Source: Nitrosococcus oceani ATCC 19707 (GTDB taxonomy: Bacteria; Pseudomonadota; Gammaproteobacteria; Nitrosococcales; Nitrosococcaceae). Taken from it: a stretch of 32,000 nt of DNA. Positions 6,037 to 23,170 of this stretch are shown here, in pieces. The stretch covers positions 2,520,001 through 2,552,000 of the forward strand of contig NC_007484.1 in the NCBI RefSeq assembly GCF_000012805.1, in the 5' to 3' direction. Under the pieces are notes generated by a model. That model had not been told where the DNA came from and did no database searches. It saw only the letters and a program-made list of their open reading frames with translations. Both the position numbers and the translations under genes were made by a program. Position 1 is the first letter of the stretch; each line of letters begins with the position of its first letter.

Positions 6037-6534
6037 TTAGCTAATGAATACCCGCATTCCCGGCTTCACTTGCTTAAACAATTCAAGCAGAGGTCCATTA
6101 TGGATGCGAATACAGCCATGGGAGCCCGGAAGGCCCATGATCGCCGCATCCGGAGCCCCATGGATATAAATATACCGGCGAAAAGTGTCTACCCTGCCGA
6201 AACGATTTTTACCCTTTTCCAAACCACTTAGCCATAAGATCCGCGTCAATATCCAATCCCGATCCGGGTAAGCCTGCCCCAGCTCAGGGGTATAAATTTC
6301 ACCTGTTGGCCGCCGCCCCCGGAATACGGTATTCACGGGACAGCCGGTACCAATTTTAGCGCGGATCTGGTGCCACCCCCGAGGTGTGCATTCGCTCCCC
6401 ATTTGCTCGCCTAAACCCTTTTTTGCTAGAGAAACAGGCGCCTCAAACAATACTTTCCGCTCCCTCCTTAGGATAAGCCGCTGTTCCAGGAAATGGACAC
6501 GAATATAGGGTTCTGGCTTCATGAGCGTTTCCAA
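6037..6534 (-). CDS. L,D-transpeptidase (YkuD/ErfK) catalytic-domain protein without a signal peptide
   Basis: The YkuD active-site motif is present: 'IHGAPDAAIMGLPGSHGCIRI' (His...Gly...Ser-x-Gly-Cys-Ile-Arg). The protein is 165 aa. I see no hydrophobic N-terminal leader. Confidence 0.8.
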   Translation of the reverse strand: METLMKPEPYIRVHFLEQRLILRRERKVLFEAPVSLAKKGLGEQMGSECTPRGWHQIRAKIGTGCPVNTVFRGRRPTGEIYTPELGQAYPDRDWILTRILWLSGLEKGKNRFGRVDTFRRYIYIHGAPDAAIMGLPGSHGCIRIHNGPLLELFKQVKPGMRVFIS

Positions 6535-6900
6535 ACTACTCTTCCCTTAACTCAAAGCACGGCATGAAACACAAGCTACCAGCTTTTTAATACGGGCTTG
6601 CAAGCAGAAATATATTTCCCCAAAGAAAGACCTGTCTCACAACTATAAAATTTATTATGCGTGACTACACTATCTAGAAAAGGGTGAAATGCTATTAGGC
6701 TACCCAGAACCAGCTTAACTATAATACTTAAATATCTCACAAATAGTTCAGCAATGCCTATTTATAGAATTTTTTTAACTAAATTCCTCTGCAAAAGATC
6801 AAAGACTCATTCATAATGAGTTTCAAGCAACGATACCAGGCACTTACCGCCCACAATACTTTATAAAAGCATTTATTTTTATTGCGTGGAGAAATACTTC

Positions 6901-7503
6901 ATGACATCAAAACAGAACGAGATGCAGGAATTAGAAGAACCCGAATCTTTGGAAATCACGGATAAGGACGAGACAAAGCGTTCCCATCGTTTAACCCTGG
7001 ATGAATACTTGTTTTATGGATTAATCCTATTCTCCCTTATCGGCGTTGCCATTTCGGAGTCCTCCGGGGGGGCGGGCCACTTATATTGGCTGGCGATGGT
7101 ACCCATGCTCGCGGCCGCTTCTCTCTACGTGGAATGGGCTCATGCCCAACTAGGAACAGGGGTTAGGTGGAAAACCTTACTGAAGACTCAGCTCATTCAT
7201 TGGGGCTCGCTTTTGGTTGCCGTGCAATTGGCCTATATGCTTTTACAATTTGGTACACTCAACGAACAAAATATCGGCCAGGTGGTGCTGCTTTTAGTAG
7301 CGCAAACCACCTTCCTTATGGGTATATACGTGGATTGGCGATTTTATGTACTCGGGGCCTTTCTCGCGCTTTGTCTGATAGTCATTTCCTATTTAGAGGC
7401 TTATATATGGCTATTGATACTGATTGCAATTGGGATTATAACCCTCGGCTTGTACCTGCATAGAAGGTTTGATATTTCGCCACATAACCGCAGCCGCGCC
7501 TAA
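6901..7503 (+). CDS. Integral membrane protein of unknown function (acidic N-terminus, about 5 TM helices)
   Basis: A GGAGA Shine-Dalgarno at 6887-6891 precedes the ATG at 6901. The track starts at the GTG at 6886. Hydrophobic segments FYGLILFSLIGVAI, LYWLAMVPMLAAASL, WGSLLVAVQLAYML, VVLLLVAQTTFLMGI and others are visible. A strong terminator follows. Confidence 0.6.
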   Translation: MTSKQNEMQELEEPESLEITDKDETKRSHRLTLDEYLFYGLILFSLIGVAISESSGGAGHLYWLAMVPMLAAASLYVEWAHAQLGTGVRWKTLLKTQLIHWGSLLVAVQLAYMLLQFGTLNEQNIGQVVLLLVAQTTFLMGIYVDWRFYVLGAFLALCLIVISYLEAYIWLLILIAIGIITLGLYLHRRFDISPHNRSRA

Positions 7504-7512
7504 TCTTAATAG

Positions 7513-7550
7513 AAAAAAAGGGCCGGCCTTTTTGGGCTGGCCCCTTTTTT
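7513..7550. terminator. Bidirectional rho-independent terminator
   Basis: Stem 7520-7528 (GGGCCGGCC) pairs with 7535-7543 (GGCTGGCCC), giving 9 bp including one G-U, with a 6-nt loop. An A7 tract lies on the 5' side (7513-7519) and a T6 tract on the 3' side (7545-7550). It sits between convergent genes ending at 7503 (+) and 7673 (-). Confidence 0.75.
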
Positions 7551-7672
7551 AGTTTTAATTGTGCCTTAGCGAGCGGGACGCTTGCAGACCGCGCCCTTCA
7601 CCTTGAAGCAGACCATCTCGGTGGTAGAGTCGTAAGGTTATGAACTTGCTAGACTATTTCGAATACACGAGT

Positions 7673-8536
7673 TCAAGGTTTAGCATGCATCCACCCACTC
7701 ACCTCCTCGAAAAATTCGAGAGTGACGCGTGCCGCATACCCCTGCCACTTTTTATGCTCACGGCCCTTTTCATCGATCTCGGTTACTCCGTCCTTCTTAG
7801 CGCTCGTGTTGATACCTACCATAAACCGGGTCGAGAATCGTTTAGAGCGAACTTTGTACCAAATGGGGCCGCCGCTCATACCTCTGGCTCGTTTCTCCAA
7901 CGGTGCTAAGGCGTCGAATACCATGCCCCGACCAGGTATTACTCCCCCCTGGCCGTCGGGAACGACGAGACCTGAACCCGGAATGTTGCCCCAACGGACC
8001 TGCATAGCTCTTTTCGTTTCCTTATGGTAGCCGGCGGTGAAAAACCTCTTATTTATCCTTGACTGCAGCCACTGAATTCCAAGCGGAGCAAAAACTGTTT
8101 TGTGCCCCTGGCTGGGATGGCCCCAGTAACCCAGCGGTTTACCTTCCAGCGCCTTGTGACGATCGGTGGTGATGTTGTCGTTCGATAGAATCACCATGCC
8201 GTAATCGTAGGCTCCATTATCCAACGATTTTTTATGTTTTCCTGCTCGCCAGCCCTTGCTCACCTCAAGATCCGAAACGGAGGAGTAGCTTCCTAACGAG
8301 TCGCTACCATCATATGCCGGAAGGACCTCAACATTCACCAGCCTAGCTCCCTTCCGATAATGGGGATCGAGGACGTGGGCGGCCGTGAGCACGTGTCGCG
8401 GTCCAACGAGGATTCCTGTTGCAGACTTTCCCTCTATCACGAGCCGACAGATCCACCGAAAGGGAATATCAAAACTCTTGGGAACCGTTTTCCCACCCGG
8501 CTTGATCTGATACTCAATAGTGACTCGTTTATTCAT
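7673..8536 (-). CDS. Trypsin-fold (S1/V8-like) serine peptidase, no signal peptide; operon gene 6 of 6
   Basis: A catalytic triad is readable in the canonical order: His54 in 'VLTAAHVL', Asp111 in 'YDYGMVIL' and Ser221 in 'GMSGGPIW'. The N-terminus (MNKRVTIEYQIKPGGKTVPK) is hydrophilic. A 111-nt gap separates it from the upstream gene, and I see no obvious SD. Confidence 0.8.
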   Translation of the reverse strand: MNKRVTIEYQIKPGGKTVPKSFDIPFRWICRLVIEGKSATGILVGPRHVLTAAHVLDPHYRKGARLVNVEVLPAYDGSDSLGSYSSVSDLEVSKGWRAGKHKKSLDNGAYDYGMVILSNDNITTDRHKALEGKPLGYWGHPSQGHKTVFAPLGIQWLQSRINKRFFTAGYHKETKRAMQVRWGNIPGSGLVVPDGQGGVIPGRGMVFDALAPLEKRARGMSGGPIWYKVRSKRFSTRFMVGINTSAKKDGVTEIDEKGREHKKWQGYAARVTLEFFEEVSGWMHAKP

Positions 8537-8647
8537 GAATGCAGCGCATAAACCAGTTTATTTGGTGAACAAACACAGTATTGAAACCAAATCGCCGGAG
8601 CTTGTTAACTGGTGAGAACAATGTGGCATAGCATGACCCTAAAAACC

Positions 8648-10450
8648 TCATTTTATTTCTTTAGTTGTGGGTCGGATCGCCAGCAACCGCTTTAAAAAAC
8701 GGTCTGCATCTGCAGGTTTGTCAGATCGGGGATTAGTTTTCCTCCGATCCGGCTGACTGGCTGCTGTAAGTCGTGCGATCGCTCGAGGATAACTCCCCCT
8801 CATAAAGAGAATAATGCGACGAACGGGCCACTCATACGGCCGCATCCCAGGTCTTCCAATCTCTTTGGCATCTTTGAGTAATTGCTCCGCGATCTTTTCA
8901 CCACCGGGTGCATTAATATGTGCCTTCTTTACGATGTAGGAAGCATCTACCCACACGCGAACCAGGGACTCGGTCACATTCCAAGAAGATAGAAATGCCT
9001 TCTGGGTATTGCGGATCCATTCGAAGGCCAATAACTTGAACATTCTGGAGCCGGTTAGCCAACCATTCTCGCGTTTCCAATCTAGGTGATTGGCATAATC
9101 GACGAGCTGTTTCTTATATGCCTTCCGCTCAGTTCGCGGCATGCCCTCGTATCTGCGACGGACAAGCGCGAAATAGTTCGTCTTGGCCCTTCTGAGCTTA
9201 ACCTTCTGCTTGGTAAGTACGCGGGCGAACTGGACGATAAAATCCCGAAGCTGTGCCCTCTCGCGTGCCTTTTCGGCGCGAGCATTCTCTGCTGCGAGTG
9301 CATCGAGGATACCCTCGACGTGGCCCACCACCTTTGATCGCTTAGCCAATGTATTAAGCAGCTGCTTCTCAATATAATTCTTCAGGACACTAGCGAATTT
9401 CGCGCTGCCCTCCGCATCAGAAGCAGACTTCAATACCTCGCCAAATTGCATCAGTGCTGATTCCCAAGCCTCTAACATCATATACTCAGCTTCGTAGATC
9501 TCCATTGCAAGTTCGCTCGGGTTTTTATCCACGTTGGCGAGTGCAGTTGGTGAGACTTGCGAGGGCGATACGGGCGGCGGAGCATCATACTTTGGCATGT
9601 GAAACCGAAGGCTGGCCCACGTATTTGGCCCTATGATTCCGTCTGGCTTCTTATCGCCCTGAGCTTCCTGCCACATATACACTGCCCGTGCAAAATCCTC
9701 CGGCGTTTCAATGGACAAAAGCTCGAGTTGGCTCACCAAGAAATTTTTTATCTCGTGTCTCTTCAGGTCCCATTTCAGCTTTTTGGCATAGTATTTGTTT
9801 CTTACCACCGCACGTCTGACATTGAATGATATTTCTTGCTCAAGAAACCCCGACCCTACTACATCTTCTTGCTTATTCCCTAGGTCAAAATCCTCCCACT
9901 CTTCATATTCAATGTCATCGTCAATCGCTTCCTCGTACTCATAGCTCGAAAATGGTGATTCCCGTTGTTGGAAAAACCCATCCTCAGACTCATCTCTAAC
10001 GTCAACGTAGCTATGCCATGCACCAGCAGGAGTATCCTGGGATCCTCTATCGGCTTGCTTCGGAGTCATCATTTCGTTGGTCTTTTCAGAATCATAAAAA
10101 TCCCTTTCCTCCGACCCTTCCAATTCATCAGTGTTTTCATCAGGAAGGAGTGATTCTTCCACTTCTTCTTCGCGATCTAGCTCATCAAAGAATTCTTCTT
10201 CTTCTAGTTCCTCGTCTATTTCCCCCTTGCGAATATCCCCCCTGAACCCTTCAGCTTCCTCGGCTGATTCACGTAAATCATTAAGAAAAGGGTTTTCTAG
10301 ATGAAACGTCTCTAGGCGGCTATCCAGATTCTCCACTTCCGCTAATTCAGCATCTGAAAACAGTTCCTCATTAAGGAATGGTGAAGCAGAATCATCTTTT
10401 GAACCGGGCTGGGAGGAATATCTATCAATATGTTTCTTTTGCGAATCCAT
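8648..10450 (-). CDS. Hypothetical 600-aa protein: acidic N-terminal about 200 aa with SPF motifs, PG_binding_1-like motif, helical basic C-terminal half; operon gene 5 of 6
   Basis: The long ORF has coding-like composition. AGGGAG lies upstream of the ATG at 10450. Residues about 20-200 are very rich in D/E. 'ARAVYMWQEAQGDKKPDGIIGPNTWASL' matches the C-terminal half of the peptidoglycan-binding-domain-1 consensus (DG-x-hGp-xTw-xxL). I recognise no catalytic motif. Confidence 0.7.
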   Translation of the reverse strand: MDSQKKHIDRYSSQPGSKDDSASPFLNEELFSDAELAEVENLDSRLETFHLENPFLNDLRESAEEAEGFRGDIRKGEIDEELEEEEFFDELDREEEVEESLLPDENTDELEGSEERDFYDSEKTNEMMTPKQADRGSQDTPAGAWHSYVDVRDESEDGFFQQRESPFSSYEYEEAIDDDIEYEEWEDFDLGNKQEDVVGSGFLEQEISFNVRRAVVRNKYYAKKLKWDLKRHEIKNFLVSQLELLSIETPEDFARAVYMWQEAQGDKKPDGIIGPNTWASLRFHMPKYDAPPPVSPSQVSPTALANVDKNPSELAMEIYEAEYMMLEAWESALMQFGEVLKSASDAEGSAKFASVLKNYIEKQLLNTLAKRSKVVGHVEGILDALAAENARAEKARERAQLRDFIVQFARVLTKQKVKLRRAKTNYFALVRRRYEGMPRTERKAYKKQLVDYANHLDWKRENGWLTGSRMFKLLAFEWIRNTQKAFLSSWNVTESLVRVWVDASYIVKKAHINAPGGEKIAEQLLKDAKEIGRPGMRPYEWPVRRIILFMRGSYPRAIARLTAASQPDRRKTNPRSDKPADADRFLKRLLAIRPTTKEIK

Positions 10451-10497
10451 AGTACTCGTTAAACTCCCTATCGAGATCTAGCCATTCGATACAAGTT

Positions 10498-11664
10498 TCA
10501 AGCCGACGTGACCTTCCTTGCCTTCAAATCATGTCCCGTCGTGATCGACCAATGGGTAATAATGGTCCTGATATCGGCCTCCGGCCCACCAGATACTCGC
10601 GTGTAAAGTGCAGGTACTGCCCCAGGATCATTGTAAATGCCGGTCTCGATCTGAATCAGAACCCTAGAGATTGCATCCGCCATATCGAAGAAATTTTTTG
10701 ATAAAGCATGCGCAGGCAAACCGACCCGCTGAGCGATTTTGTGCAGTCTTTGCTCGGGACTGGTGCCTTCTGCCCGAAGTGATAGCACAATCGGCGAATC
10801 AAATTCCAAGGTGAGCTGAAACCAGGCCATCATGGAGACAAAGAAAAACTCTTCCCGGGCCAGGTTGCTGCCCAGTCGGCGCGTCACCAACATATCATGG
10901 AGTTTTTCGGCAAGATTGGCGATTTCCGCATCATCAGTGGGATTGGAGCCACTGGTATTATTGACGTTAATAACACCCAACCACACTTCGCGAAGAAATT
11001 CCTCGAAGATGTAGACAAATTCAGAATTGGCTGCCTGGGCCTTTTCATAAGGTATTTTATCCTCGCCTTGATGATTCAGCTCCATACCGAACATTCGGTA
11101 ATAGGCGTTACGGCGGGAGGAACAAAGATTGGGGCGAATAAAGCTGCCCAGTGAATAAATAAAAAACGATGCTGGTTCCTTGTAAAAAAGCTCTTCTGTG
11201 TTGCGCAACCAATGCTCAGCGCCTTCAATGGGGACGCCTAATTGCTCACCATGTCGAAATTCATGTAATACTTTGCGGAAGATCTCATAGACCCGCGTGT
11301 TTTCGATCATGTAAGCATAAATGAGGTGGTCCCACATCACACAGCGGGGAAGATCTCGGGGCTCTAAGCAAGGATTATTAGGTGGGAGATTTACGGCTTC
11401 AACTTGGGGATCCGAGTCGCAAATATCTTTAATATTGTCTTCAGTACAGGCAAATAATTTGAGTAAATAATGGGGCAACCCAGGAAGATTGCTTCGCCGA
11501 AAGGGATGTCCTTGAGGCTTATCATTTGGAGGCGTATCATCATGTCTTCTTAATTCCCAAGCCTGCTCTAACAAGGCGGCTAATTCCACCGGGTGTAACC
11601 GGAAGAGTTTCCGCGCCCCCTCGTCCATCGAGCCTGGAAAAGATCCTGCAAATTGTCTGAACAT
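10498..11664 (-). CDS. Hypothetical 388-aa protein; operon gene 4 of 6
   Basis: A strong SD (AAGGAGGG) lies upstream of the ATG at 11664. The gaps to both neighbours are 46-47 nt. The sequence looks soluble and has four Cys between residues 73 and 108. I can name no family. Confidence 0.7.
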   Translation of the reverse strand: MFRQFAGSFPGSMDEGARKLFRLHPVELAALLEQAWELRRHDDTPPNDKPQGHPFRRSNLPGLPHYLLKLFACTEDNIKDICDSDPQVEAVNLPPNNPCLEPRDLPRCVMWDHLIYAYMIENTRVYEIFRKVLHEFRHGEQLGVPIEGAEHWLRNTEELFYKEPASFFIYSLGSFIRPNLCSSRRNAYYRMFGMELNHQGEDKIPYEKAQAANSEFVYIFEEFLREVWLGVINVNNTSGSNPTDDAEIANLAEKLHDMLVTRRLGSNLAREEFFFVSMMAWFQLTLEFDSPIVLSLRAEGTSPEQRLHKIAQRVGLPAHALSKNFFDMADAISRVLIQIETGIYNDPGAVPALYTRVSGGPEADIRTIITHWSITTGHDLKARKVTSA

Positions 11665-11710
11665 TTCCTATCCCTCCTTTGAGGCTGTGATAGCAAAGAC
11701 AAATTATTCC

Positions 11711-12040
11711 TTACTCCTTCTCCTTCGCGCGCGCTGACGGATTAGCCCTTGGATTAATGGGAGGCAGGCGCCATTTTTTTAGAGGATCTATATTGGGATC
11801 GAGTTGTGTAGGCACCCTAAGCGCAATCTTAATGGCCTTAAATTGTTCAATCGCCTGGTCCGGTAAGCTGCCTTCTTCAAAAGGTTGCCTAGTCCGCGTC
11901 TGAACCAGATCGCGGACTTCTTCAAAAATACCCGTAAGTAATTGGACAATTTCCTGGGTATCCACCCCTTTCCCCACCTGAGATCCTGCTGAGCTGGTTT
12001 TCTCCGGAGACCGCTTCGATGTATGTTTTTCGTCTGCCAT
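11711..12040 (-). CDS. Hypothetical 109-aa hydrophilic protein; operon gene 3 of 6
   Basis: A strong SD (GGAAGGAGAGG) lies upstream of the ATG at 12040, 31 nt after the preceding stop. The protein is charged, has no hydrophobic segment and has basic termini. Confidence 0.6.
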   Translation of the reverse strand: MADEKHTSKRSPEKTSSAGSQVGKGVDTQEIVQLLTGIFEEVRDLVQTRTRQPFEEGSLPDQAIEQFKAIKIALRVPTQLDPNIDPLKKWRLPPINPRANPSARAKEKE

Positions 12041-12071
12041 GATTGATTACCTCTCCTTCCAAGCACTAAAA

Positions 12072-13334
12072 TCAAGCTGCTTTTAACGACGCACCTAACC
12101 GGAGCATCCACGCTTCCTGTTTTTTCAGTATCTCGGCGGACTGTTCCGGCATCGTCGCCACTTGCAACCCAGTAAGCGCCAGCAAGCGCAGCGCTTCCGT
12201 CCATATCCAATGCATTGAGGTGTAAAGGGCGGGGCCTAATTGCCGCTCTAGCTGTATCAAGCTTGCGGGACTAACACGGGAGGGGTCGATTAACCTACCG
12301 AGGGCTCGTCCCCGGAAAGCTCGCATGGGCGTCCGCAGCACAATGTGGACCACCTTTGGCAATAACGGCAACGACTGTTGTAGTAGCTTGCCCGTTGAGA
12401 GCCTGGCGTTCTTCAGAGAATGGGCCTTGGTCCATACACGCACCAAATCGTCCCATGGCCCTGCCCCATAAAACTGCCGGCACATCTCTATGCCCAATAG
12501 GACGCGGATATAGCTAATGGGGTGGGGATCGCCTAAACGATGCCGGAATACGAAGCCATCGCTTCCGGATAATACGTCATGAAGTCCAGCCACAGCTGCA
12601 TAGCCCGTATGGGCAAAGGCGAAAGCATCCGCTGCGATCTCGCTGGCCCATCCCGCCCACATCTCGGCCACCTCAGGCGATACCTCTGCAAATGTTTCTT
12701 CCAGCGCGGCAGCCAATTCATTATTCCAACCAACGATATGGGCGACCTGATGGCCTGTTTCGTGGATCAGCGCCGTGGGGCGATAAAGATTATGATAGAC
12801 AATTTTTATTGCCGCAGCCGGGCTTTCCGTGCGCTGGTCCCAAAGCCGAAGCCCCGCTTTCAGAATTGAAGCGCCTAATCCCTTATCCACATAGGTTAAA
12901 ACCAAAGGAATCGGCTTGCCTATTGGGTCAAGAACCTGGGCCATGCTACGATAGGCCAGCGCATCACAGGCCCGAAGCAATGCCGCCAGGTGGGGATTCG
13001 TTCGGATATTTATGGCGTCGGCGTAAAAATCCAGCGTAATTTCGGTGCGCAAGTAACGCTTACGAAAATCGACCAATTGCCGGCGGACCTGATCCAAAGC
13101 GTCATCATCATGGGCCGCGTTTAAGGCAGCATGAAGCTGATCGCCTTGCCGGAGCAGTTGATCGACCGCCTCTCTCAGCCTTTGGCGAACCGCCGTGCCA
13201 AGATAATATTCCAAGCCCTCCCAGGCACTCGGTGCAATGAGACTTTCCAGTTCGCCCAGCCTAGAGGCCGCCATGGTCCAATGCCCAACCTGACGGGTAA
13301 ACTGTGTCCGCGTTATATTGAGTAACTCATTCAC
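12072..13334 (-). CDS. Putative zinc metallopeptidase (HExxH; gluzincin/M3-like arrangement); operon gene 2 of 6
   Basis: 'ALIHETGHQVAH' (HETGH encoded at 12750-12764) is followed about 40 residues later by 'WASEIAADAFAF'. This is reminiscent of the third-ligand Glu helix of gluzincins. The GTG start at 13334 overlaps the upstream stop as GTGAATGA, which suggests translational coupling. I see no signal peptide. Confidence 0.55.
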   Translation of the reverse strand: MNELLNITRTQFTRQVGHWTMAASRLGELESLIAPSAWEGLEYYLGTAVRQRLREAVDQLLRQGDQLHAALNAAHDDDALDQVRRQLVDFRKRYLRTEITLDFYADAINIRTNPHLAALLRACDALAYRSMAQVLDPIGKPIPLVLTYVDKGLGASILKAGLRLWDQRTESPAAAIKIVYHNLYRPTALIHETGHQVAHIVGWNNELAAALEETFAEVSPEVAEMWAGWASEIAADAFAFAHTGYAAVAGLHDVLSGSDGFVFRHRLGDPHPISYIRVLLGIEMCRQFYGAGPWDDLVRVWTKAHSLKNARLSTGKLLQQSLPLLPKVVHIVLRTPMRAFRGRALGRLIDPSRVSPASLIQLERQLGPALYTSMHWIWTEALRLLALTGLQVATMPEQSAEILKKQEAWMLRLGASLKAA

Positions 13335-15738
13335 TGTAATATCCTGGAATAGTTTGCACGCGGATTTCCGGCATGGCTTCGGAGAAATCCATGCCGCGCA
13401 GGCTTATCGTTTTCCTTTTCAAAGCGTCGCGAAGAGCTGGCAAACCGGGCAGATTATCAAGAGTTATTGCCAAGGTGACGCCCTCTGCCGGATCTTCGGT
13501 GGCAACGATAAAGCTCTGGGGCTGTTCCCGGAAGTAATGGCTCAATCCTTTGCCCAACCACTCCGTTACCTTCATCAGTAAGCTTTCTTTAATGGGCTGT
13601 GGGACCTCCATAAGCGCGGGGCCACGGGCGCCTTGGGGCAACATGGCTTCATGGATGATCTTTACCTGGCCGCATATCCCGCTGATTAGCGCATGCTTCA
13701 AGCCGGGTTCCATACCCGACTTCAAGGAAATCATCACCACACCGATTGGCGTTCGCTGACGCAGCTTAACGGCGATATCCTGTGCCTTGGTCTCGCTCAG
13801 GAAGTGGTAAACTCGAATCTGCTGCCGCGCAAAATCCAGGATAACCTTAACTTCACTACAGCGCCTCATCATTGCATTGGCGCCAGCCATAGGACCCATT
13901 CGGAGCCGTACGCCTGGGATTTCCAAATAATAGAAACGCTGTCCAATCCCCGTCACACGGCGGTTGGCAAAATACTTGGGCGGCATTATGCGTCCTAGTC
14001 CAGGATGCCCGAGCAATATTCCAGCCGCTTCAGGAGTCAGGGGGTGCAACTGGGAATAGGCGTAATTTGCAGTCATTCCCAAGCCAGGAGTGTTGTGTTC
14101 GTGTTTGCTGATTTGCGGGAGCATGGCGCCAGACATCATTTCGTAGAGGTGAACTCTGGCCTCAACGTCTACACCTGGAGAAAGCCCGAGTTGTTCCTGC
14201 AAAACTTCCGACAGTGGGATACCACCGTAGGTTTTAACTGCCCGCAGCTTCGGGGGAGAGAGTTTAGCATTTAAAATTCGGCTGTATTTTTTATAAAATT
14301 TCCTCCCCCGCAATGGCTGGAGTATCCAGGTCGCCTTAAGGCCCTTCGTCTCCCGCAAATCTGGCCGCTTGAGATATGCTTCTTCCGGGAGAACTTCAGG
14401 CAAATTGCGTGTGGCGGCCTGCTCAAAAGCTTCTAGTACATAGCCTTCTAATAGCTCCTCGTCGTCCAAGACATAATCGGGCAGCACCGCAACTTGACGC
14501 AGGGTATCTTCAACCGTCGCCGCAACCGCGGCACCCACTGCCTGGCGCGCATCTTCTTCCGTCGCCTCGAGGTTAATTAACCGGAGGCCGGCATCGACAA
14601 TCGCTTTCGACAAGGGACGAACATACCTGCGTCCAACAAAACGTTTAATAAGTTTTGCGACATATTTAGCCAGGAAATTGACGAGCTTTGGCCGCCCAAT
14701 AAACCGTATACCCAATTTTACCAGGGGCAAGATGGCAGGAATAAAGTTCTCCACAAGCGGAGTGGGGTCATCGCCCTCTTCTAGCTCCAAAACTCCTTCG
14801 ATAAACTGCTCACGCGCCTGATCTAAATCGCCAAGGGGATCGGCGCTAGGTTGCCGGGCCTCAGAGCTCACTTCCGCCAGCATGAGCTCCTGCTCTGTTT
14901 CATCCTCGGAAAACAGTAGATTCGCCAGCATTAAATCAAATTCTTGCTGGAACTGGTTGATTTCAGCGACAGTATCTTCGCCTCCGTCGAACGATCCCTG
15001 GTCTTCAATTTCTTTTTGAAAGCCTAGCCGCTTGGCTAGTATTTGAGCCAAGGGCCGGTATTTTTTAGGCAGTTTATTGATCGCAAAAGTTGTGATTTTT
15101 TTGATCCACGGTTTTATATATTTTCTAAGTTTTCTCAGGGCAATCCTGAACGCTTTTCTCGCGAGCGCCTTGCCTTTTTTCTTGACCCAATCAACCCCCT
15201 TTTTGAGCGCTTTTTTGACCTTCTTCTTGGCCCATCCAAAAATATTTTCAAAGGCAGGTGAAAGCGGCTGGCTAGGCGCATAGTGGTCAATAAAGGCATC
15301 AATTTCAGACTCGCTCATCGCTTCAAGATCACGATGATCGATATCCTCGGCCATTGCCTCCAAAAGCGTCTCTAGCTCGCTAGCCAAGGGTGAGAGGTGC
15401 GCCTCCAATATGCGCTCGGCTTCCAGGGTCTGCTCGGCTGGATGCCGGTATTTGGACACAAACTGATCGTCATACAACCCGGAGGCTTCAGTGATCAGTT
15501 CAAAGACAGCTTCATCGAATTCTTCATCGTATAGTTCGGTCACAAATTGCACGAACTCTTCAGATTCCGGATCGACTCTTTCTTCGCCATCTTCCAGTTC
15601 ATAAACAGAAACAAACGGGCTGGCAGACTGAAGCGTCGCTGAAGATGGAGCGTGTTCCTGATCTACTTCAACCTCTGACGCTGGAAAGCTGGTCACATCA
15701 AGAAACGGTGAATGGGAAGTCTTGGCGGGCTGGGACAT
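13327..15738 (-). CDS. Hypothetical 803-aa protein with alternating acidic and lysine-rich blocks and an unassigned about 400-aa C-terminal domain; operon gene 1 of 6
   Basis: The SD AAGGAGG (15744-15750) lies 5 nt upstream of the ATG at 15738. The N-terminal about 166 aa are strongly acidic and contain two SPF[LV] motifs. Residues 167-240 are K/R-rich (encoded at 15019-15240). Residues 241-334 are acidic again. Residues 335-387 form a second basic-hydrophobic block (14578-14736). I recognise no family. Confidence 0.7.
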   Translation of the reverse strand: MSQPAKTSHSPFLDVTSFPASEVEVDQEHAPSSATLQSASPFVSVYELEDGEERVDPESEEFVQFVTELYDEEFDEAVFELITEASGLYDDQFVSKYRHPAEQTLEAERILEAHLSPLASELETLLEAMAEDIDHRDLEAMSESEIDAFIDHYAPSQPLSPAFENIFGWAKKKVKKALKKGVDWVKKKGKALARKAFRIALRKLRKYIKPWIKKITTFAINKLPKKYRPLAQILAKRLGFQKEIEDQGSFDGGEDTVAEINQFQQEFDLMLANLLFSEDETEQELMLAEVSSEARQPSADPLGDLDQAREQFIEGVLELEEGDDPTPLVENFIPAILPLVKLGIRFIGRPKLVNFLAKYVAKLIKRFVGRRYVRPLSKAIVDAGLRLINLEATEEDARQAVGAAVAATVEDTLRQVAVLPDYVLDDEELLEGYVLEAFEQAATRNLPEVLPEEAYLKRPDLRETKGLKATWILQPLRGRKFYKKYSRILNAKLSPPKLRAVKTYGGIPLSEVLQEQLGLSPGVDVEARVHLYEMMSGAMLPQISKHEHNTPGLGMTANYAYSQLHPLTPEAAGILLGHPGLGRIMPPKYFANRRVTGIGQRFYYLEIPGVRLRMGPMAGANAMMRRCSEVKVILDFARQQIRVYHFLSETKAQDIAVKLRQRTPIGVVMISLKSGMEPGLKHALISGICGQVKIIHEAMLPQGARGPALMEVPQPIKESLLMKVTEWLGKGLSHYFREQPQSFIVATEDPAEGVTLAITLDNLPGLPALRDALKRKTISLRGMDFSEAMPEIRVQTIPGYYSE

Positions 15739-15759
15739 GAACGCCTCCTTATACTTTCC

Positions 15760-15777
15760 TTAGATCATTTAGATCAT
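15760..15777. repeat. Exact tandem 9-mer (TTAGATCAT x2) just upstream of the operon's first start codon
   Basis: I read it directly: ttagatcat at 15760-15768 and again at 15769-15777. It lies 22-39 nt upstream of the ATG at 15738, in the 5' UTR or promoter-proximal zone. On the minus strand it reads ATGATCTAA x2. Confidence 0.5.
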
Positions 15778-16268
15778 GGTGTGGCGGCTAAGTAAGTACC
15801 TTGCAAAAATTTTCCAGTAACACGGCAAATCCCCGCGGAATCCAACCGCCTGCCCATAAACCAGCGTGCCTCTGGCCGCTGTTTTCCCGCACACTCTCCC
15901 AGGATTGGGAAACCTTTATTTGCAGAAATGCCAGAACTCCACGGGTTGCTGGAGCGATCAGGCGCAGGGAATGGGATAATCAACCACCTTAGCCGAGTAT
16001 TGTTCCTAAACAGCGTGCAAAACCGGATTATGAGGGCTCCCGCTATCTGGGCACTGAAGGGTTTCCACAGGGGTCTTTCCATGGGTATTCTCTGGTAAAC
16101 CGGGCTCAAACTCGTAATCTGTTAAAATCGGTCTCGGTTTTAACCTCCACTTATATAGATATATAGACCATGGCGCTGAATGTAGGCAGCCATTTTTCCC
16201 CCTGGGAAAAACGCTATTCTCTTACCTGCCCATGGCCTGCAATAAACACATCCAGGAGCATTTCCACG

Positions 16269-19131: not shown

Positions 19132-21375
19132 ATGACAATTGAGACGAAATTCAACATCCCTCTTGTGGCCAGTCTCGCGCTACGCGAGAAGCAGATTCAG
19201 CAGAATTACAGGCCGATCATTGCTGTCCACAAATGGTTTGCACGGCGGCCTGGCAGCCTTTTCAGAGCGCTGGCTCTGGCTGAATTTGGCGAGGCGCCGC
19301 TTGCCGATCTATACTTTACGGCCAACAATTTTCCGGGGAGGCAAGTCGCCGATCCCTTCATGGGTGGCGGAACGCCACTGATCGAAGCTAACCGCATCGG
19401 TTGCGATGTGACTGGGTTTGACATCAATCCGATGGCCGCGTGGATAGTCCGCGAGGAAATCGAGCATCTTGACATCACGGTTTATCAGGAGGAGGCCAGC
19501 CGGTTTCTCCACAAGTTGCGCCACGAGATCGGGCCTCTGTATGTGACAGACTGCTCCCTCTACGGCGATACCGACGTGCCGGTAAAATATTTCCTCTGGG
19601 TTAAAGTCATCAGCTGCGAGTCCTGTGGACAGGAGGTGGATCTGTTTCCCGGTTATGTCCTCTCCCAGAACGCCCGCCATCCAAAGAATGTAATGGTTTG
19701 TGCCGATTGTGGGGAACTGAGCGAGGTTAATGACCGAGCGGTGCCTGGGGTGTGCAAAAGCTGTGATGCAACCTTGCATGCCAAAGGCCCCGCGGGTCGG
19801 GGTCGCTGCGTTTGCGCCCATTGCGATCATGAAAATAGATACCCGCGCGCCAGCCAAGGACCATTACAACATCGGCTCTTCGCCATTGAGTATTACAATC
19901 CACACCGTAAGGCGCAGCATAAGGGGCGCTTTTTCAAAAAGCCAGATGCAAAGGATCTGGCGCGCGTTGCCGAAGCCAAACAGCGGTGGCATGAATTCCA
20001 TGCTCATTTCGTCCCAGAGCAAAAAATCCTCTCGGGTGATGAAACCGACCGGCTTCACCGGTGGGGCTACAGCCATTACCGGGAAATGTTTAACCATCGG
20101 CAGCTTCTGGGCCTGGAGCTAAGTTGCCGTCTGATCGCCCGTGTCAAAAATGAGCGCGTGCGTCATGCGCTGGCTACCAATCTGTCCGACCTTCTGCGCT
20201 ATCAGAACATGCTTTGCCGATACGACACCTGGGCGCTCAAGTCCCTCGATATCTTCTCTGTGCATGGCTTTCCGGTCGGGCTAATACAATGCGAATCGAA
20301 CCTGCTCGGCATTATTAATAACAAGGGCACCAATGTCGGCTCGGGCGGCTGGACCAACATTATCGACAAGTATACCAAGGCCAAGCGCTACTGCGATACG
20401 CCGTTCGAGGTGCAACGGCATGGCACACGCAATGTTCAGATTCCGATTCAAGGCGAATGGATCGGGGAAAAATTGAATGGTGAGCAGCGGCGGAACGTCG
20501 CTATTCATTGCGCTGACGCAACCACGGTGAAGTTGGCGCCGAATAGTCTCGATGCCGTGTTTACAGATCCTCCCTATTTCGGGAATGTACAGTATGGCGA
20601 GCTGATGGATTTTTGCTATGTCTGGCTGCGCCGTCTGGTGGGGAATGAAGCTGAAGGGTTCTGGCGACCGTCAACCCGTACCGATGGAGAACTCACCGGC
20701 AATGTTACCCGGTCTTGGGGACTTCCTCGCTTCACCGAGGGCCTTGCCCGAGTCTACCGGCATATGGCCGAGGCGCTACAACCTGGTGCACCACTGGCGT
20801 TTACCTACCACCATAATAAACTCAACGCCTATTTTGCTGTGGGTGTTGCCATCCTTGATGCCGGTCTAACTTGTTCGGCCTCCCTACCCTGCCCGGCCGA
20901 GATGGGGGGGTCTATTCATATCCACGGCACAACCTCATCGATCATCGATACCGTGTTCGTCTGTCGCGACACCGGCCACGTACCCAGGCGCTGGCTTTTC
21001 GAGTCTACCGATCAGCTCGCGGCCATTGTCGCCCATGATCTTGCACAGGTTGCCGAGGGGGGGCATAAACCAAGTATGGGCGATACGCGGTGCATTATCT
21101 TCGGTCATCTTACCCGTATGGCCATTTGGAATTTAAGACTGACGTGGGAAGCAAAGCTTTCGACTGATGAAAAGCTGGATCGCTTCGCCAAAGCGGTTCG
21201 CGCTCTGGCCGATCCCGACGATCTTCTCGAACGACTGCAAGCCGATGGGCGAGTGTCCGCTCCCGCCGAGCCGCTCTTTTCAGCGGCCACAACTTTGGGA
21301 AGGATTCGTGATGCCGTTTCCTTTCGAAGTTCCCTTTGCAGAGATCGAAAGCGATCTCGGCACTTATGTCGATGA
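19132..21375 (+). CDS. DUF1156 / COG1743-type DNA methyltransferase with internal zinc ribbons (N6-adenine or N4-cytosine class)
   Basis: The N-terminal 'AVHKWFARRPGSLFRA' is characteristic of DUF1156. The SAM-binding motif I is 'ADPFMGGGT' (19351-19374). Four CxxC pairs lie at 19615-19824. The catalytic motif IV is 'DPPY' (20566-20577). Confidence 0.85.
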   Translation: MTIETKFNIPLVASLALREKQIQQNYRPIIAVHKWFARRPGSLFRALALAEFGEAPLADLYFTANNFPGRQVADPFMGGGTPLIEANRIGCDVTGFDINPMAAWIVREEIEHLDITVYQEEASRFLHKLRHEIGPLYVTDCSLYGDTDVPVKYFLWVKVISCESCGQEVDLFPGYVLSQNARHPKNVMVCADCGELSEVNDRAVPGVCKSCDATLHAKGPAGRGRCVCAHCDHENRYPRASQGPLQHRLFAIEYYNPHRKAQHKGRFFKKPDAKDLARVAEAKQRWHEFHAHFVPEQKILSGDETDRLHRWGYSHYREMFNHRQLLGLELSCRLIARVKNERVRHALATNLSDLLRYQNMLCRYDTWALKSLDIFSVHGFPVGLIQCESNLLGIINNKGTNVGSGGWTNIIDKYTKAKRYCDTPFEVQRHGTRNVQIPIQGEWIGEKLNGEQRRNVAIHCADATTVKLAPNSLDAVFTDPPYFGNVQYGELMDFCYVWLRRLVGNEAEGFWRPSTRTDGELTGNVTRSWGLPRFTEGLARVYRHMAEALQPGAPLAFTYHHNKLNAYFAVGVAILDAGLTCSASLPCPAEMGGSIHIHGTTSSIIDTVFVCRDTGHVPRRWLFESTDQLAAIVAHDLAQVAEGGHKPSMGDTRCIIFGHLTRMAIWNLRLTWEAKLSTDEKLDRFAKAVRALADPDDLLERLQADGRVSAPAEPLFSAATTLGRIRDAVSFRSSLCRDRKRSRHLCR

Positions 21376-21895
21376 AATCTTTTCCTGCCTGCAATCTGAA
21401 TTCCTGACCTTGCCCAAAGGTCCGGGATTCGTCGAATATCCAGCGTTTGAGAGCGGCTATGAAGCGCTGAAGCGAACCACGGGCAACTTCCGGAACCTTT
21501 CGCCAGGGCCGGTGATTGAAACCGTCTACCGGGTGCCGATCACCTTGGTGGTACTGCGCTGTATGCTGGGTTTTACGCCGCCGGAATGGGCCTATGTCAC
21601 TTCCCAGCGGACCCATGTGGCAGTATCGCAGGGTGCGATCCGTACTATCGACCGCAAAATCCGCATGGAGCCTGCAACGCCGCTCAGGAACAGGGGCGGT
21701 GTGACAGGGGAGCGCATTCGCTCGCTCGTCACGACCGCCTGCCAAATTCTAACTGAAGGTGCCCCCGAGGAGCCGGAAGAGATTATTCACCGTCTCAATA
21801 AGGCCGATACAAGCAGCGGTCTTGCCAGCTTGCAACCACTGGCAGATCTTGGTGTACCCTACGCCATGCTTCTCTGTAACTGTTCCGCCAGCTAA
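21311..21895 (+). CDS. Hypothetical protein (about 194 aa) overlapping the methyltransferase 3' end; C-terminus possibly altered by the adjacent IS
   Basis: The ATG at 21311 is preceded by GGGAAGGA. It overlaps the methylase ORF by 65 nt in another frame. Its composition is coding-like, whereas the antisense ORF (21110..21745) is Arg-rich junk. The last 10-40 codons run into the predicted right end of the tnpB element. Confidence 0.5.
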   Translation: MPFPFEVPFAEIESDLGTYVDEIFSCLQSEFLTLPKGPGFVEYPAFESGYEALKRTTGNFRNLSPGPVIETVYRVPITLVVLRCMLGFTPPEWAYVTSQRTHVAVSQGAIRTIDRKIRMEPATPLRNRGGVTGERIRSLVTTACQILTEGAPEEPEEIIHRLNKADTSSGLASLQPLADLGVPYAMLLCNCSAS

Positions 21896-21960
21896 AGCTG
21901 GCGGCTTTCCACTGCACAAGGAGCACACTTATGCGCGAACATAGGCTGAGTTACAGCAGC
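21780..21960 (-). ncRNA. Candidate TnpB omega-RNA (reRNA) overlapping the tnpB 3' end and right end
   Basis: This is the position expected from established TnpB biology. Nested structure is visible. An outer 8-bp pairing joins 21873-21880 (CTGTAACT) to 21948-21955 (AGTTACAG). It encloses the 8-bp hairpin at 21885-21904. A further 6-bp hairpin lies in 21821-21845. The ends and guide were not determined. Confidence 0.3.
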
Positions 21961-23170
21961 CCTTCTGGCGATATTGCCAGCGGCGTTATGGTCTGCGTGA
22001 TTACTGTGCCCGCATTCCACACACCGAAACTCAGACTGGGTTGGCCGGTTAGCTTTGTCGATACGGCCACAGGCCGGGCACTCGCGGCTAGTGTTGCGTG
22101 GGTCGACTATCACCACCGGCACGCCAGCACGTTTAGCCTTATACTCGATAAAGGCACGAAGCTGAGCGAAGCCCCAGTTATGCAAGCGTTTCCTCTGCGC
22201 TTTGTTGGCCTTAACCCGTGCCCGGATATGCTTGAGATTTTCAAGTCCAATGCCGAGACGGGAGCGTTCCGCAGTCGAGACGATGCGTTTGGAGATACAA
22301 TGGTTCTCGTATTTTTGAAACCGTTTCTGCCTGCCGCTTATGTGGCGAAGGCAGCGTTTAGCGGCCCGTGTGCCGAGGCGCTGCAAGGTGGCGCGTCGTT
22401 TGGCGTAACGCTCACGGTAGGCTTGGACTTTAGCCCCGCAGTACCTCTCACCCAGGCTGTCAGTGGCGATATTGACAATACCGAAATCCACACCCAACAT
22501 GCCTTCAGGGGTCAGCAATTTGGGGTCGTCAAAGTCACATACAGCGGCCAAATACCATTGGCCGCGCACGAACATCAAATCGACTTCGCCCTTGCGGTGT
22601 TCAAGCAATTGGCGCTGGTGATCGCTACCAACATAGCCAATCTTTTCTCGACCCGACAAAAGCCACAGGGAGACTTTCTCATCACAGACAAAGCGCAGGA
22701 TACGGTCATCATAGGGATGCGCCGCATGCTTACGAAAGGCGCGCTGGGTTTTCTGGTCAAGCTTGTAGGCGTGCGCCACTTTAGCAATGCAGCGCACCGC
22801 CACCTGAGCGGACAATGCAAATTTGGCGCGCACGGCTTGATAGCAGAGCTTATGCAAATCGTATTGCCGGAATGTCTTCGTTTCCCAAGCGCGCTCAGAG
22901 AGCCAGTTGCACGCTTCATTACAGCGCGCCAGCGTCAAACGCAACTCGCGTTCTTGCGCTGGAGTTGGCGTCAGTTTGAGGTTAGCTACCAACTTCATAA
23001 GCTCAAGTATAGAGTGCTTTTATGGATAGATCTATCAACGGGCGGCTTTCTTCCACCCCCTGAAGGAGGCGCTCTCCAGCCGCAATTTTTATGAACGGTT
23101 CCTTGGCCGTCCCTTCGCCGGGCACCGCGATTCCGTCAGCGAACTGGCCGGTGATAGAGCATCTCTATCT
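21800..23170 (-). mobile_element. IS200/IS605-family, tnpB-only (IS1341-like, non-autonomous) element; boundaries approximate
   Basis: It contains an intact tnpB and no tnpA. A perfect 8-bp hairpin (21885-21892 / 21897-21904) spans the tnpB stop. The 10-mer GGCGGCTTTC is shared by both ends (21900-21909 and 23041-23050). A 7-bp hairpin GATAGAG-CAT-CTCTATC at 23153-23169 sits at the composition break with the DUF262 fragment. The exact LE and RE ends were not determined. Confidence 0.55.
21892..22998 (-). CDS. tnpB: TnpB (IS605 OrfB family RNA-guided endonuclease)
   Basis: The 368-aa ORF has RuvC-I 'LGVDFGIVNIAT', RuvC-II 'IGLENLKHI', the zinc finger 'CPACG...CVECG' and RuvC-III 'HADHNAAGNIARRA'. 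The N-terminus 'KLTPTPAQERELRLTLARCNEACNWL' is typical of OrfB. Confidence 0.9.
   Translation of the reverse strand: MKLVANLKLTPTPAQERELRLTLARCNEACNWLSERAWETKTFRQYDLHKLCYQAVRAKFALSAQVAVRCIAKVAHAYKLDQKTQRAFRKHAAHPYDDRILRFVCDEKVSLWLLSGREKIGYVGSDHQRQLLEHRKGEVDLMFVRGQWYLAAVCDFDDPKLLTPEGMLGVDFGIVNIATDSLGERYCGAKVQAYRERYAKRRATLQRLGTRAAKRCLRHISGRQKRFQKYENHCISKRIVSTAERSRLGIGLENLKHIRARVKANKAQRKRLHNWGFAQLRAFIEYKAKRAGVPVVIVDPRNTSRECPACGRIDKANRPTQSEFRCVECGHSNHADHNAAGNIARRAAVTQPMFAHKCAPCAVESRQL

Follow-up and report, generated by a model that had tools for sequence, protein, structure and literature searches.

A conserved cassette of Nitrosococcus oceani with leader-tagged, polymorphic and probably envelope-directed cargo

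Polymorphic toxin systems, reportedly set out by Zhang, de Souza, Anantharaman, Iyer & Aravind in 2012, join a constant N-terminal region to variable enzymatic tips, carry several cargos per locus, spread horizontally and reuse their tips in other delivery systems. A summary of polymorphic toxin and effector systems is available (PMC12419801). In this study, we analyzed a six-gene operon of Nitrosococcus oceani ATCC 19707, which lies on the minus strand of the window (the whole stretch of DNA that was analyzed, 32,000 nucleotides, positions 2,520,001 to 2,552,000 of contig NC_007484.1) and whose genes are called A to F. It is very probable that the operon belongs to a conserved cassette with leader-tagged, polymorphic and envelope-directed cargo, the core being formed by A, B, C and D and the cargo by the protein at position E. 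The traits listed above are all found again in the cassette, and a domain of E also occurs on eCIS_core proteins. The cassette differs in its leader, which is a pair of short linear motifs followed by an acidic linker and not LXG, PAAR, RHS, MuF or DUF4157, and in its core A-D, which has no relatives in the described systems. As for the secretion routes of polymorphic toxins (type I to type VII secretion systems, Sec/Tat, PVC/eCIS and MuF), no secretion-system Pfam domain was present in the neighbourhoods examined and none was recurrent, and clustering of the flanking open reading frames (ORFs) of 84 loci gave no recurrent family in the place of a downstream immunity gene.

Several other systems share part of this plan. 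In the NTP-dependent conflict systems coupled by effector-associated domains (EADs; Kaur, Burroughs, Iyer & Aravind 2020, PMC7159879), as in the cassette, the same N-terminal tag is carried by a core component (here A) and by swappable effectors (here E), trypsin-type and lysozyme-type effectors occur, and many hosts are multicellular or filamentous; however, the cassette has neither a core of the STAND, MoxR-vWA or GTPase kind nor any P-loop, its tag is a linear motif whereas EADs are folded alpha-helical domains, and its effectors are mostly predicted extracytoplasmic murein hydrolases. Type VI secretion systems (T6SS) and extracellular contractile injection systems (eCIS) overlap with it in payload, namely amidases, SLT/lysozyme-like glycosidases, M15/M23 peptidases, the VgrG3 C-terminal domain and PLD lipases, and one cargo domain in common with eCIS_core (DUF4157) proteins is the sole link; unlike these machines, the cassette is accompanied by no sheath, tube, baseplate, spike or ATPase genes in ~80 neighbourhoods, and it occurs in monoderms and archaea. 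The class III bacteriocin prolysostaphin is a secreted zymogen whose acidic repeat pro-region is removed by a protease. Bacteriolysins of this type resemble the cassette in having an acidic pro-region before a murein hydrolase that carries a wall-binding module, and a protease dedicated to processing is plausible; the cassette, in contrast, has no Sec/Tat signal peptide or femAB-like immunity gene, possesses a multi-protein core and places its leader also on the non-hydrolase A. Weaponised peptidoglycan hydrolases have been recorded in archaea as well (PMC12352652). Gasdermins and holin-endolysin pairs offer a further likeness, in that a protease gene is coupled to a protein with a seemingly masked membrane-active part and that wall hydrolases need membrane passage. 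Unlike them, A matches neither gasdermin nor holin families and lacks a transmembrane segment, there is no phage context, endolysin-type domains are seen only in the cargo of relatives, the cassette protease is a predicted novel zincin and not caspase-like, trypsin or CHAT, and the copies in archaea speak against self-lysis. The literature, searched by locus tag, leader motif, host set and concept, yielded no description of the cassette.

The operon and its parts in the window are as follows (lengths and residues in amino acids, aa).
7673-15738, minus strand: operon A-F of Nitrosococcus oceani ATCC 19707, 6 co-directional ORFs (ORF map).
13327..15738, minus strand: gene A, 803 aa, conserved core (ORF; upstream of B in ~80 loci).
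15598..15714, minus strand: leader of A, aa 9-47, HSPFLD … ASPFVSVYELE (motif and alignment to the E leader).
15034..15240, minus strand: Lys-rich amphipathic segment of A, aa ~167-235, net charge ~+25 (charge blocks of +12 and +13 per 40 aa).
12072..13334, minus strand: gene B, 420 aa, Noc_2192, predicted zinc metallopeptidase (start overlaps the stop of A by 8 nucleotides, nt).
12750..12764, minus strand: HExxH codons of B, aa 191-195 (motif).
11711..12040, minus strand: gene C, 109 aa, small core protein (ORF between B and D in most loci).
10498..11664, minus strand: gene D, 388 aa, Noc_2190, all-alpha conserved core (>1,574 homologs).
8648..10450, minus strand: gene E, 600 aa, leader-tagged polymorphic cargo (modular comparison and representative search).
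10271..10387, minus strand: leader of E, aa 22-60, ASPFLNEELF … ENPFLNDL (motif and alignment).
9605..9694, minus strand: PG_binding_1-like module of E, aa ~253-282 within a ~90-aa repeat (sub-threshold Pfam/NCBIfam).
8741..9583, minus strand: C-terminal cargo domain of E, aa ~290-570 (representative search).
7673..8536, minus strand: gene F, 287 aa, S1/trypsin-fold protease (PF00089 and triad).

The ORF map reproduced the six genes of an earlier note on this DNA, made from the sequence alone, at the same coordinates and with the same lengths, and the spacing bears out its view of a single tightly coupled operon. The junction between the stop of A and the start of B reads GTGAATGA and gives the overlap of 8 nt that had been noted; the gaps after B are, in order, 31, 46, 47 and 111 nt (the last between E and F), again as noted. 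Strong Shine-Dalgarno (SD) sequences had been claimed for most of the genes, and good ones are present ahead of A (AAGGAGG), C, D (AAGGAGGG) and E (GGGAG), while none was found ahead of B, which is coupled to A, or ahead of F. Several protein features were likewise recovered as first described: the HExxH of B at aa 191-195, the complete triad of F together with a Pfam Trypsin match above the cut-off, and the alternating charge blocks of A. The absence of transmembrane segments, signal peptides and P-loops from the six proteins also held, no transmembrane-like segment (maximum 19-aa Kyte-Doolittle mean 1.38) and no signal peptide being detected and the Walker-A/P-loop motif having zero matches in all six. 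For E, the PG-binding-like motif falls below the Pfam threshold on its own (15.8 against 23 bits), but the stretch aligns to proteins that bear PG_binding_1.

When 185,579 species, each represented by one genome, were scanned with a pattern, 119 places with a relative of B came up, 80 of which were kept as loci. These ~80 loci cover about 19 phylum-level lineages (by record title), bacterial and archaeal, including Nitrospirota, Cyanobacteriota, Acidobacteriota, Actinomycetota (Streptomyces, Nonomuraea), Bacteroidota (Chitinophaga, Runella, Fibrella, Aquimarina), Bacillota (Paenibacillus), Myxococcota, Planctomycetota, Verrucomicrobiota, Gemmatimonadota, Chloroflexota and Pseudomonadota (Nitrosomonas, Rubrivivax), and, among the archaea, Methanosarcina, Methanothrix and a Hodarchaeota metagenome-assembled genome. 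The common plan is A (~800 aa), B (~420 aa, HExxH), C (small), D (~380 aa) and E (cargo). In essentially every locus of sufficient length, tblastn with the six window proteins placed A directly upstream of B, with D on the downstream side and all on one strand; the identities were 29-50% (A), 46-65% (B) and 34-58% (D). Between domains of life, A, B and D share 30-65% identity. The A/B start/stop overlap of 8 nt is kept in 46 of 69 loci, which points to conserved translational coupling of A and B. Relatives, counted as clusters at 90% identity, numbered >2,521 for B, >1,574 for D and >508 for A (the count for A coming from the top 8,000 word-sharing candidates only), all of which are annotated as hypothetical and none of which has a Pfam domain. 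The genomic contexts of the loci examined are mutually unrelated, and the clustering of flanking ORFs revealed no further recurrent family, the other clusters being shadow ORFs in A, B or D or generic kinases and ABC ATPases; no linked transporter gene was found in it either.

As to mobile carriers, B had no match among 50,697 INPHARED phage genomes, so a phage origin was dropped, and 72,556 plasmids gave only distant matches to the B core, on rhizobial megaplasmids, so plasmid carriage was dropped as well. One of these matches is on the Ensifer adhaerens megaplasmid NZ_CP118611.1 (locus L093, 7600-14900), where a distant B-core relative of 451 aa shows 33% identity over aa 142-305. Next to it are two short proteins, each with an 'SPF' motif, a stretch of acidic residues and an amphipathic peptide rich in Gly and Lys ('LEQFLGDFIKKAVSVVGQAAK…' and 'LEQFLGGLFKKVGAGLKSVGKF…'), a 724-aa protein without assignment, and a protein with PG_binding_1 and GIY-YIG domains. 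We consider L093 a possible reduced sister system whose clients resemble antimicrobial peptides; a likeness of its neighbours to D and to a 'mini-A', seen by eye, was withdrawn at hhalign probabilities of 0.06% and 7%. We also had the impression from the host list that carriers are often filamentous, aggregating or multicellular, such as filamentous cyanobacteria, Streptomyces, Myxococcota, Anaerolineae, Methanosarcina, Methanothrix, Thiotrichaceae, Saprospiraceae and Runella/Fibrella, and this impression echoes the enrichment of conflict systems in filamentous and multicellular prokaryotes (PMC7159879).

What the cargo has in common with the core protein A is a short N-terminal leader, named SPFL here after its motif. 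In E-position proteins its consensus is '…(L)ESPFL(D/E)EELF…(about 25 aa)…ESPFLxAFE', with a long acidic stretch behind it, and the N-terminus of A has the consensus '(S/T)PFLDxxSF…EE…SPF(L/V)S(V/I)YE(L/F)E', followed by 'DPExEEYxxFLNELYDEEFDEA'. A strict motif, [ST]PF[LVIM] within the first 70 residues, was found in 33 of 48 E-position proteins and 53 of 72 A proteins, compared with 1 of 322 control ORFs from the same loci (Fisher p ~2e-34 and 3e-48, respectively), and most of the misses are near-variants such as SPYL, TPYF and SPFT. When a profile of 29 E leaders was set against the A family, both motifs came into register at the N-terminus (hhalign probability 90%, E 1.6e-6), and by this profile comparison the leaders of A and E are homologous. 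In all frames of the window, A and E alone among the ORFs of 100 aa or more carry the leader; some other loci (L026, L066 and L025) have two tandem leader-tagged proteins. Not all proteins at the E position are tagged in this way: in two loci (L035 11754-15158 and L043 11684-15013) they are flavin amine oxidases of ~1,100 aa, both of which begin at the FAD-binding motif, without the SPFL leader.

The gene after D usually encodes 500-1,700 aa and is not detected by BLAST between loci. The domains behind the leader are swapped between genomes, with 33 Pfam families in 45 E-position proteins. Among these 45, PG_binding_1 was found in 9, DUF2272/CHAP-like domains in 5, Trypsin_2 in 5, SLT in 4, Amidase_2 in 3, VanY in 3, amino oxidase in 2, PhoD in 2, and the T6SS VgrG3-like C-terminal domain and PLD in 1 each; M15 variants, Amidase_6, M23 and M74 occur at the E position as well. 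By these domain assignments the E-position cargo consists mostly of predicted murein hydrolases and is envelope-directed, and by analogy its spectrum is the payload spectrum of interbacterial antagonism systems.

The window E fits this modular plan, with the leader at aa 22-60, then an acidic linker (net charge about -50) that runs to about aa 200, a PG_binding-like part at aa ~210-300 and a C-terminal region of ~270 aa. Its match to PF01471 (E 0.016, 15.8 bits, cut-off 23 bits) is below threshold; the stretch aligns to proteins in which bona fide PG_binding_1 is combined with Amidase_2 or S8 domains, and the E proteins of other loci have clear PG_binding_1 matches. A search with aa 201-600 of E against 1.84 billion representatives returned 228 relatives, 76 of them at E<=1e-10. 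Its C-terminal domain was found behind other SPFL leaders (P0364, with 'ESPFIDQQLF…ESPFVEAL', and P0368) and behind eCIS_core/DUF4157 (P0382 and P0386, PF13699 E 1e-34 and 2e-29), and the E of the Aquimarina locus L038 is 41% identical to that of the window. This reuse behind other N-termini suggests that it is a shuffled, toxin-type cargo domain.

The serine protease F matches PF00089 at 25.2 bits (cut-off 20.6), the match covering the N-terminal part only, and its triad H54, D111 and S221 lies in the motifs TAAH, DYG and GMSGGP. Over its full length, including the 'IP.RWIC' start, F aligns to leader-proximal trypsin domains of the loci L026 and L049 (E 5e-18 and 7e-19), and F-like sequences were seen in ~15 of 80 loci, mostly inside E proteins. 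Because the trypsin domain sits behind leaders elsewhere and is restricted to these loci, F is by these alignments a leaderless stand-alone copy of a cargo-type domain, accessory to the cassette and not its core maturation protease. It is probably the second cargo in the window.

Within the core, A, B and D have no relatives in Pfam, NCBIfam, PADLOC, PHROG or PDB, and scans of all six window proteins with the four family collections turned up only the trypsin match of F and sub-threshold PG_binding matches. The best matches in PADLOC-DB v2.0.0 had E values of at least 0.03, an NCBIfam match to Avs1b had E 0.34, and sequence and profile searches of A, B, D and F against PDB sequences gave nothing meaningful. 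No AAA, NACHT or vWA Pfam domain and no sensor-type domain (NTPase, STAND or nuclease) was found in A-D. In A, four elements come after the bipartite SPFL leader: an acidic block, the amphipathic segment rich in Lys, another acidic/cationic pair and, at the C-terminus, a conserved domain of ~480 aa. The net charge per 40 residues runs -4, -15, -4, -11, +12, +13, -11, -9 and onwards, and a further Lys-rich stretch spans aa 328-375. The Lys-rich segment, with the family consensus 'KKxxKKxxKKAxxLAKKG…LIKPLLKKVL', is a candidate membrane-active or polyanion-binding element, judging from its composition. A has no Pfam or PDB sequence match, and a scan of 45 family members gave, at the level of sequence, no gasdermin Pfam match for A or the others.

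Homologs of B are 46-75% identical, and in the family alignment H191, E192, G194, H195, E232 and D236 (the last two in 'SEIAAD') are invariant and H199 nearly so. AlphaFold2 models of B and D, for which 53 or 56 homologs were aligned, reached a mean predicted local distance difference test score (pLDDT) of 90.6 and a predicted template-modelling score (pTM) of 0.88 for B, and 90.0 and 0.90 for D. In the model of B, strands 145-150 and 174-179 precede the HExxH helix 187-201, and Foldseek found no fold neighbour of B in PDB; none of D was found in PDB or BFVD, nor a PDB sequence match of D. The best Foldseek E values for B and D were 0.4-0.9 (none below 0.4), with template-modelling scores of ~0.1-0.17. 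The model thus suggests a zincin-type catalytic core layout inside an otherwise new helical protein, and B is predicted to be a peptidase. A relationship of B to the eCIS_core/DUF4157 zincins was rejected at an hhalign probability of 0.3%, and an SRN2 match to its N-terminal coiled helices (E 7e-4) was set aside as a coiled-coil artefact. D also contains an HExxH string, HEFRH at aa 134-138 (window 11251-11265); since the family consensus does not keep the first His, a metal site is improbable here. C has the motif (E/Q)F..IK.AL…W.LP, which in the window reads 'EQFKAIKIALRV…KKWRLPP'; its length ranges elsewhere from ~50 to 250 aa, and some loci add CARDB or fn3 Ig-like domains.

Taken as a whole chain, we give about even chances to a horizontally spread, self-contained cassette that deploys leader-tagged antibacterial envelope effectors. 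The A-D machinery is rated as categorically new, and its function is one that we infer. More tentatively, and with less than even confidence, we propose a deployment route used in both domains of life, in which four soluble core proteins of new fold would recognise and proteolytically remove the SPFL leader and would release or deliver envelope-degrading enzymes without ATPase, channel or phage-tail apparatus, bacteria and methanogens using it to kill bacteria. The leader would serve the core as an address for recognising its clients, and B, coupled to A, would cut off the leader and the acidic pro-regions, a pattern visible in the acidic/cationic alternation of A and in the long acidic linker of E. 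The Lys-rich amphipathic segments of A might thereby be unmasked and permeabilise a membrane, either the producer's own, for release, or the target's outer membrane, for access. Processing by B could also free or activate the cargo enzymes, which would then attack the walls of neighbouring bacteria, while C and D may act as adaptors or chaperones. In the window the cargo would be E, with its PG-binding-like module and toxin-type domain of ~270 aa, and probably F in addition.

The archaeal loci bear on the target. Three Methanosarcina loci and one Methanothrix locus have intact cargo, in which PG_binding_1 is combined with SLT, DUF2272 or VanY/M15. To our knowledge, Methanosarcina and Methanothrix make no murein; murein-specific cargo therefore cannot serve self-lysis in these hosts, which supports other bacteria as the target. 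Murein or pseudomurein walls are cited only for Methanobacteria and Methanopyri among archaea (PMC12352652).

Several points weigh against the deployment of antibacterial effectors proposed here. No transmembrane segment, signal peptide or ATPase and nothing exporter-like was found in the cassette, so the exit of the cargo from the cell is left unexplained, and for its release some producer cells may have to lyse or a membrane be permeabilised. The window E has no recognisable hydrolase in family scans, and some E-position proteins are leaderless. B shows no relationship to any curated peptidase family in Pfam, PDB sequences or Foldseek, so its catalytic role rests on motifs, and each step of the mechanism remains a proposal drawn from sequences and models. 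No linked immunity gene was seen in the flank clustering, which fast-diverging, cargo-specific ones could escape, and in the window E is followed by F and a terminator. A missing immunity gene is unusual for kin-directed toxins and expected for weapons aimed at distant targets (PMC12419801), and its absence here fits the latter.

Some of what the earlier note made of the operon has to be revised in this light. It had asked whether the families co-occur in other genomes, and A, B, C, D and a leader-tagged E do so in ~80 loci; the six do not form one set, however, as the trypsin F stands outside the conserved core and ~65 of 80 loci have no F-like gene. The propeptide-like regions suspected on the two large proteins correspond to their common homologous leader by hhalign, but the identity of the 600-aa protein was misread, since it is the polymorphic effector and no second constant partner. 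Of the proposed proteolytic maturation module, processing by the HExxH protein B is a reasonable reading, whereas the joint action of two proteases on two substrates is not upheld, and the parallels drawn with gasdermins and trypsin-linked conflict systems gained no sequence or family support. The statement that no known system matches agrees with the family scans and the literature, and sensitive searches (profiles, PDB, and AlphaFold plus Foldseek for B and D) did not place the proteins in any characterised system.

Other explanations of the same loci were considered. The one closest to the gasdermin parallel of the earlier note is abortive infection or programmed lysis, in which a trigger (phage or damage) would let B cleave the pro-regions, A would form a holin- or gasdermin-like pore from inside, E would degrade the cell's own wall and the cell would die. 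The sporadic, transfer-driven spread (~119 matches in 185,579 species genomes), the predicted cytoplasmic location of all components without signal peptide, the lack of an immunity gene in the flank clustering, the acidic pro-piece ahead of a cationic amphipathic segment in A, which is like that of a protease-activated pore-former, and the impression of many filamentous or aggregating hosts, a habit tied to altruistic conflict systems (PMC7159879), all speak for it. We nevertheless regard it as unlikely, given that Methanosarcina and Methanothrix keep murein-specific cargo that is useless on a murein-free host, that there is no PADLOC match and no sensor-type domain (NTPase, STAND or nuclease) in the core, and that murein hydrolases, L-amino-acid oxidase and VgrG3-C are typical payloads of antagonism and not abortive-infection effectors. 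A new export pathway, with the SPFL leader as secretion signal, A-D forming or recruiting a translocator and A co-secreted without lysis while the producer survives, would account for the constant leader with variable cargo, which mirrors signal-dependent secretion, for the several cargos per locus, and for the strong conservation of A, B and D across domains, which suggests a tightly fitted complex. Yet a core with no membrane-spanning segment, no ATPase or other energy source and no outer-membrane component, accompanied by no linked transporter gene, would need to serve diderm, monoderm and archaeal envelopes alike, and we hold this explanation to be rather improbable.

Two further explanations start from the murein-active domains themselves. 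If the cassette served endogenous wall remodelling or autolysin maturation, as a housekeeping or developmental function, a cargo that is mostly murein-active and the YkuD L,D-transpeptidase gene adjoining the window operon would be in keeping with it; its presence in archaea without murein, its rare and patchy occurrence, not conserved by lineage and in unrelated contexts, the lack of signal peptides, and a cargo that includes PLD, amino oxidase and a toxin domain common with eCIS_core proteins make this very improbable. Little credence can likewise be given to a phage remnant or domesticated module (virion lysins, a lysis cassette or a protein-filled particle). Murein hydrolase and PG_binding domains are typical of phage lysins, E has a weak PHROG endolysin match (E 0.03), and, speculatively, the acidic cargo linker and the cationic segment of A could co-assemble electrostatically; but B is unmatched in the 50,697 phage genomes, A-D have no PHROG families, the model of D has no BFVD neighbour, and no capsid, tail, terminase or integrase genes were found in the flanks.

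The operon in the window is bounded by two non-coding features.
~7506-7558, no strand assigned: bidirectional hairpin resembling an intrinsic terminator, common with the convergent gene 6886-7503 (G+C-rich, T-runs on both sides).
15739..16268, no strand assigned: upstream non-coding region, presumed promoter/regulatory, divergently common with a Na/H exchanger gene (ORF map and gene calls).

The hairpin, with its T-runs on both sides, accords with the terminator placed earlier at 7513-7550. The 530-bp non-coding region described upstream stands with the called start of the exchanger (574 aa), whereas the distance to the longest ORF is 431 nt. On the minus strand upstream, no sigma-70 site was convincing, a promoter scan giving nothing above the shuffled expectation. 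The operon is indeed AT-richer than its surroundings, as judged by eye before, but modestly so (G+C 0.504 versus 0.54 in the flanks), and the effect is confined to C, D and E (0.48-0.49), B having 0.551. Ordinary chromosomal genes make up the flanks (YkuD L,D-transpeptidase, ABC permeases, Na/H exchanger and sulfotransferase), a search of the window for island boundaries found no tRNA gene and no flanking direct repeats, and an Rfam scan of the window found no RNA families. The YkuD-type L,D-transpeptidase gene (6037-6534, minus strand) lies just past the operon, was not seen in other loci and may be a coincidence. The gene at 6886-7503 (plus strand), convergent on the operon terminator, encodes 205 aa with four transmembrane-like segments and no family match; it was considered as an immunity protein and dropped, as it is next to the cassette in N. 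oceani only. Farther away in the window, a 368-aa ORF (21892-22998, minus strand) with Cas12f1-like TNB and OrfB_IS605 domains is a TnpB-type transposon-associated nuclease, opposite which lies a shadow ORF of 387 aa (21931-23094). A 747-aa protein (19132-21375, plus strand), which has weak N-terminal matches to DUF1156 and N6-adenine DNA methyltransferases only, may be a large restriction/modification or defence-type methylase. After the gene of a 629-aa periplasmic protein with Lnb_N, DUF7840 and DUF7843 domains (24640-26529, minus strand) comes that of an alpha/beta hydrolase (23712-24680).

Besides being abundant, the cassette occurs in two domains of life and follows a simple, testable logic of leader and cargo. 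Thousands of genomes and metagenome contigs carry this tightly conserved multi-gene cassette, which is unnamed in databases, and two of its core proteins, B and D, have confidently predicted folds without structural neighbours. Among archaeal peptidoglycan hydrolases, 68% have no signal peptide and their deployment is unexplained (PMC12352652). If the antagonism reading is true, the cassette would be a new deployment route for antibacterial enzymes and would explain the use of some of these signal-peptide-less archaeal enzymes; its leader would be portable and might load arbitrary cargo, and the leader-tagged domains would form a catalogue for toxin discovery, including the 270-aa domain of N. 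oceani. If, instead, the suicide-lysis reading is true, the cassette would join the defence-type systems as a new one, and the protease that activates it would be new as well.

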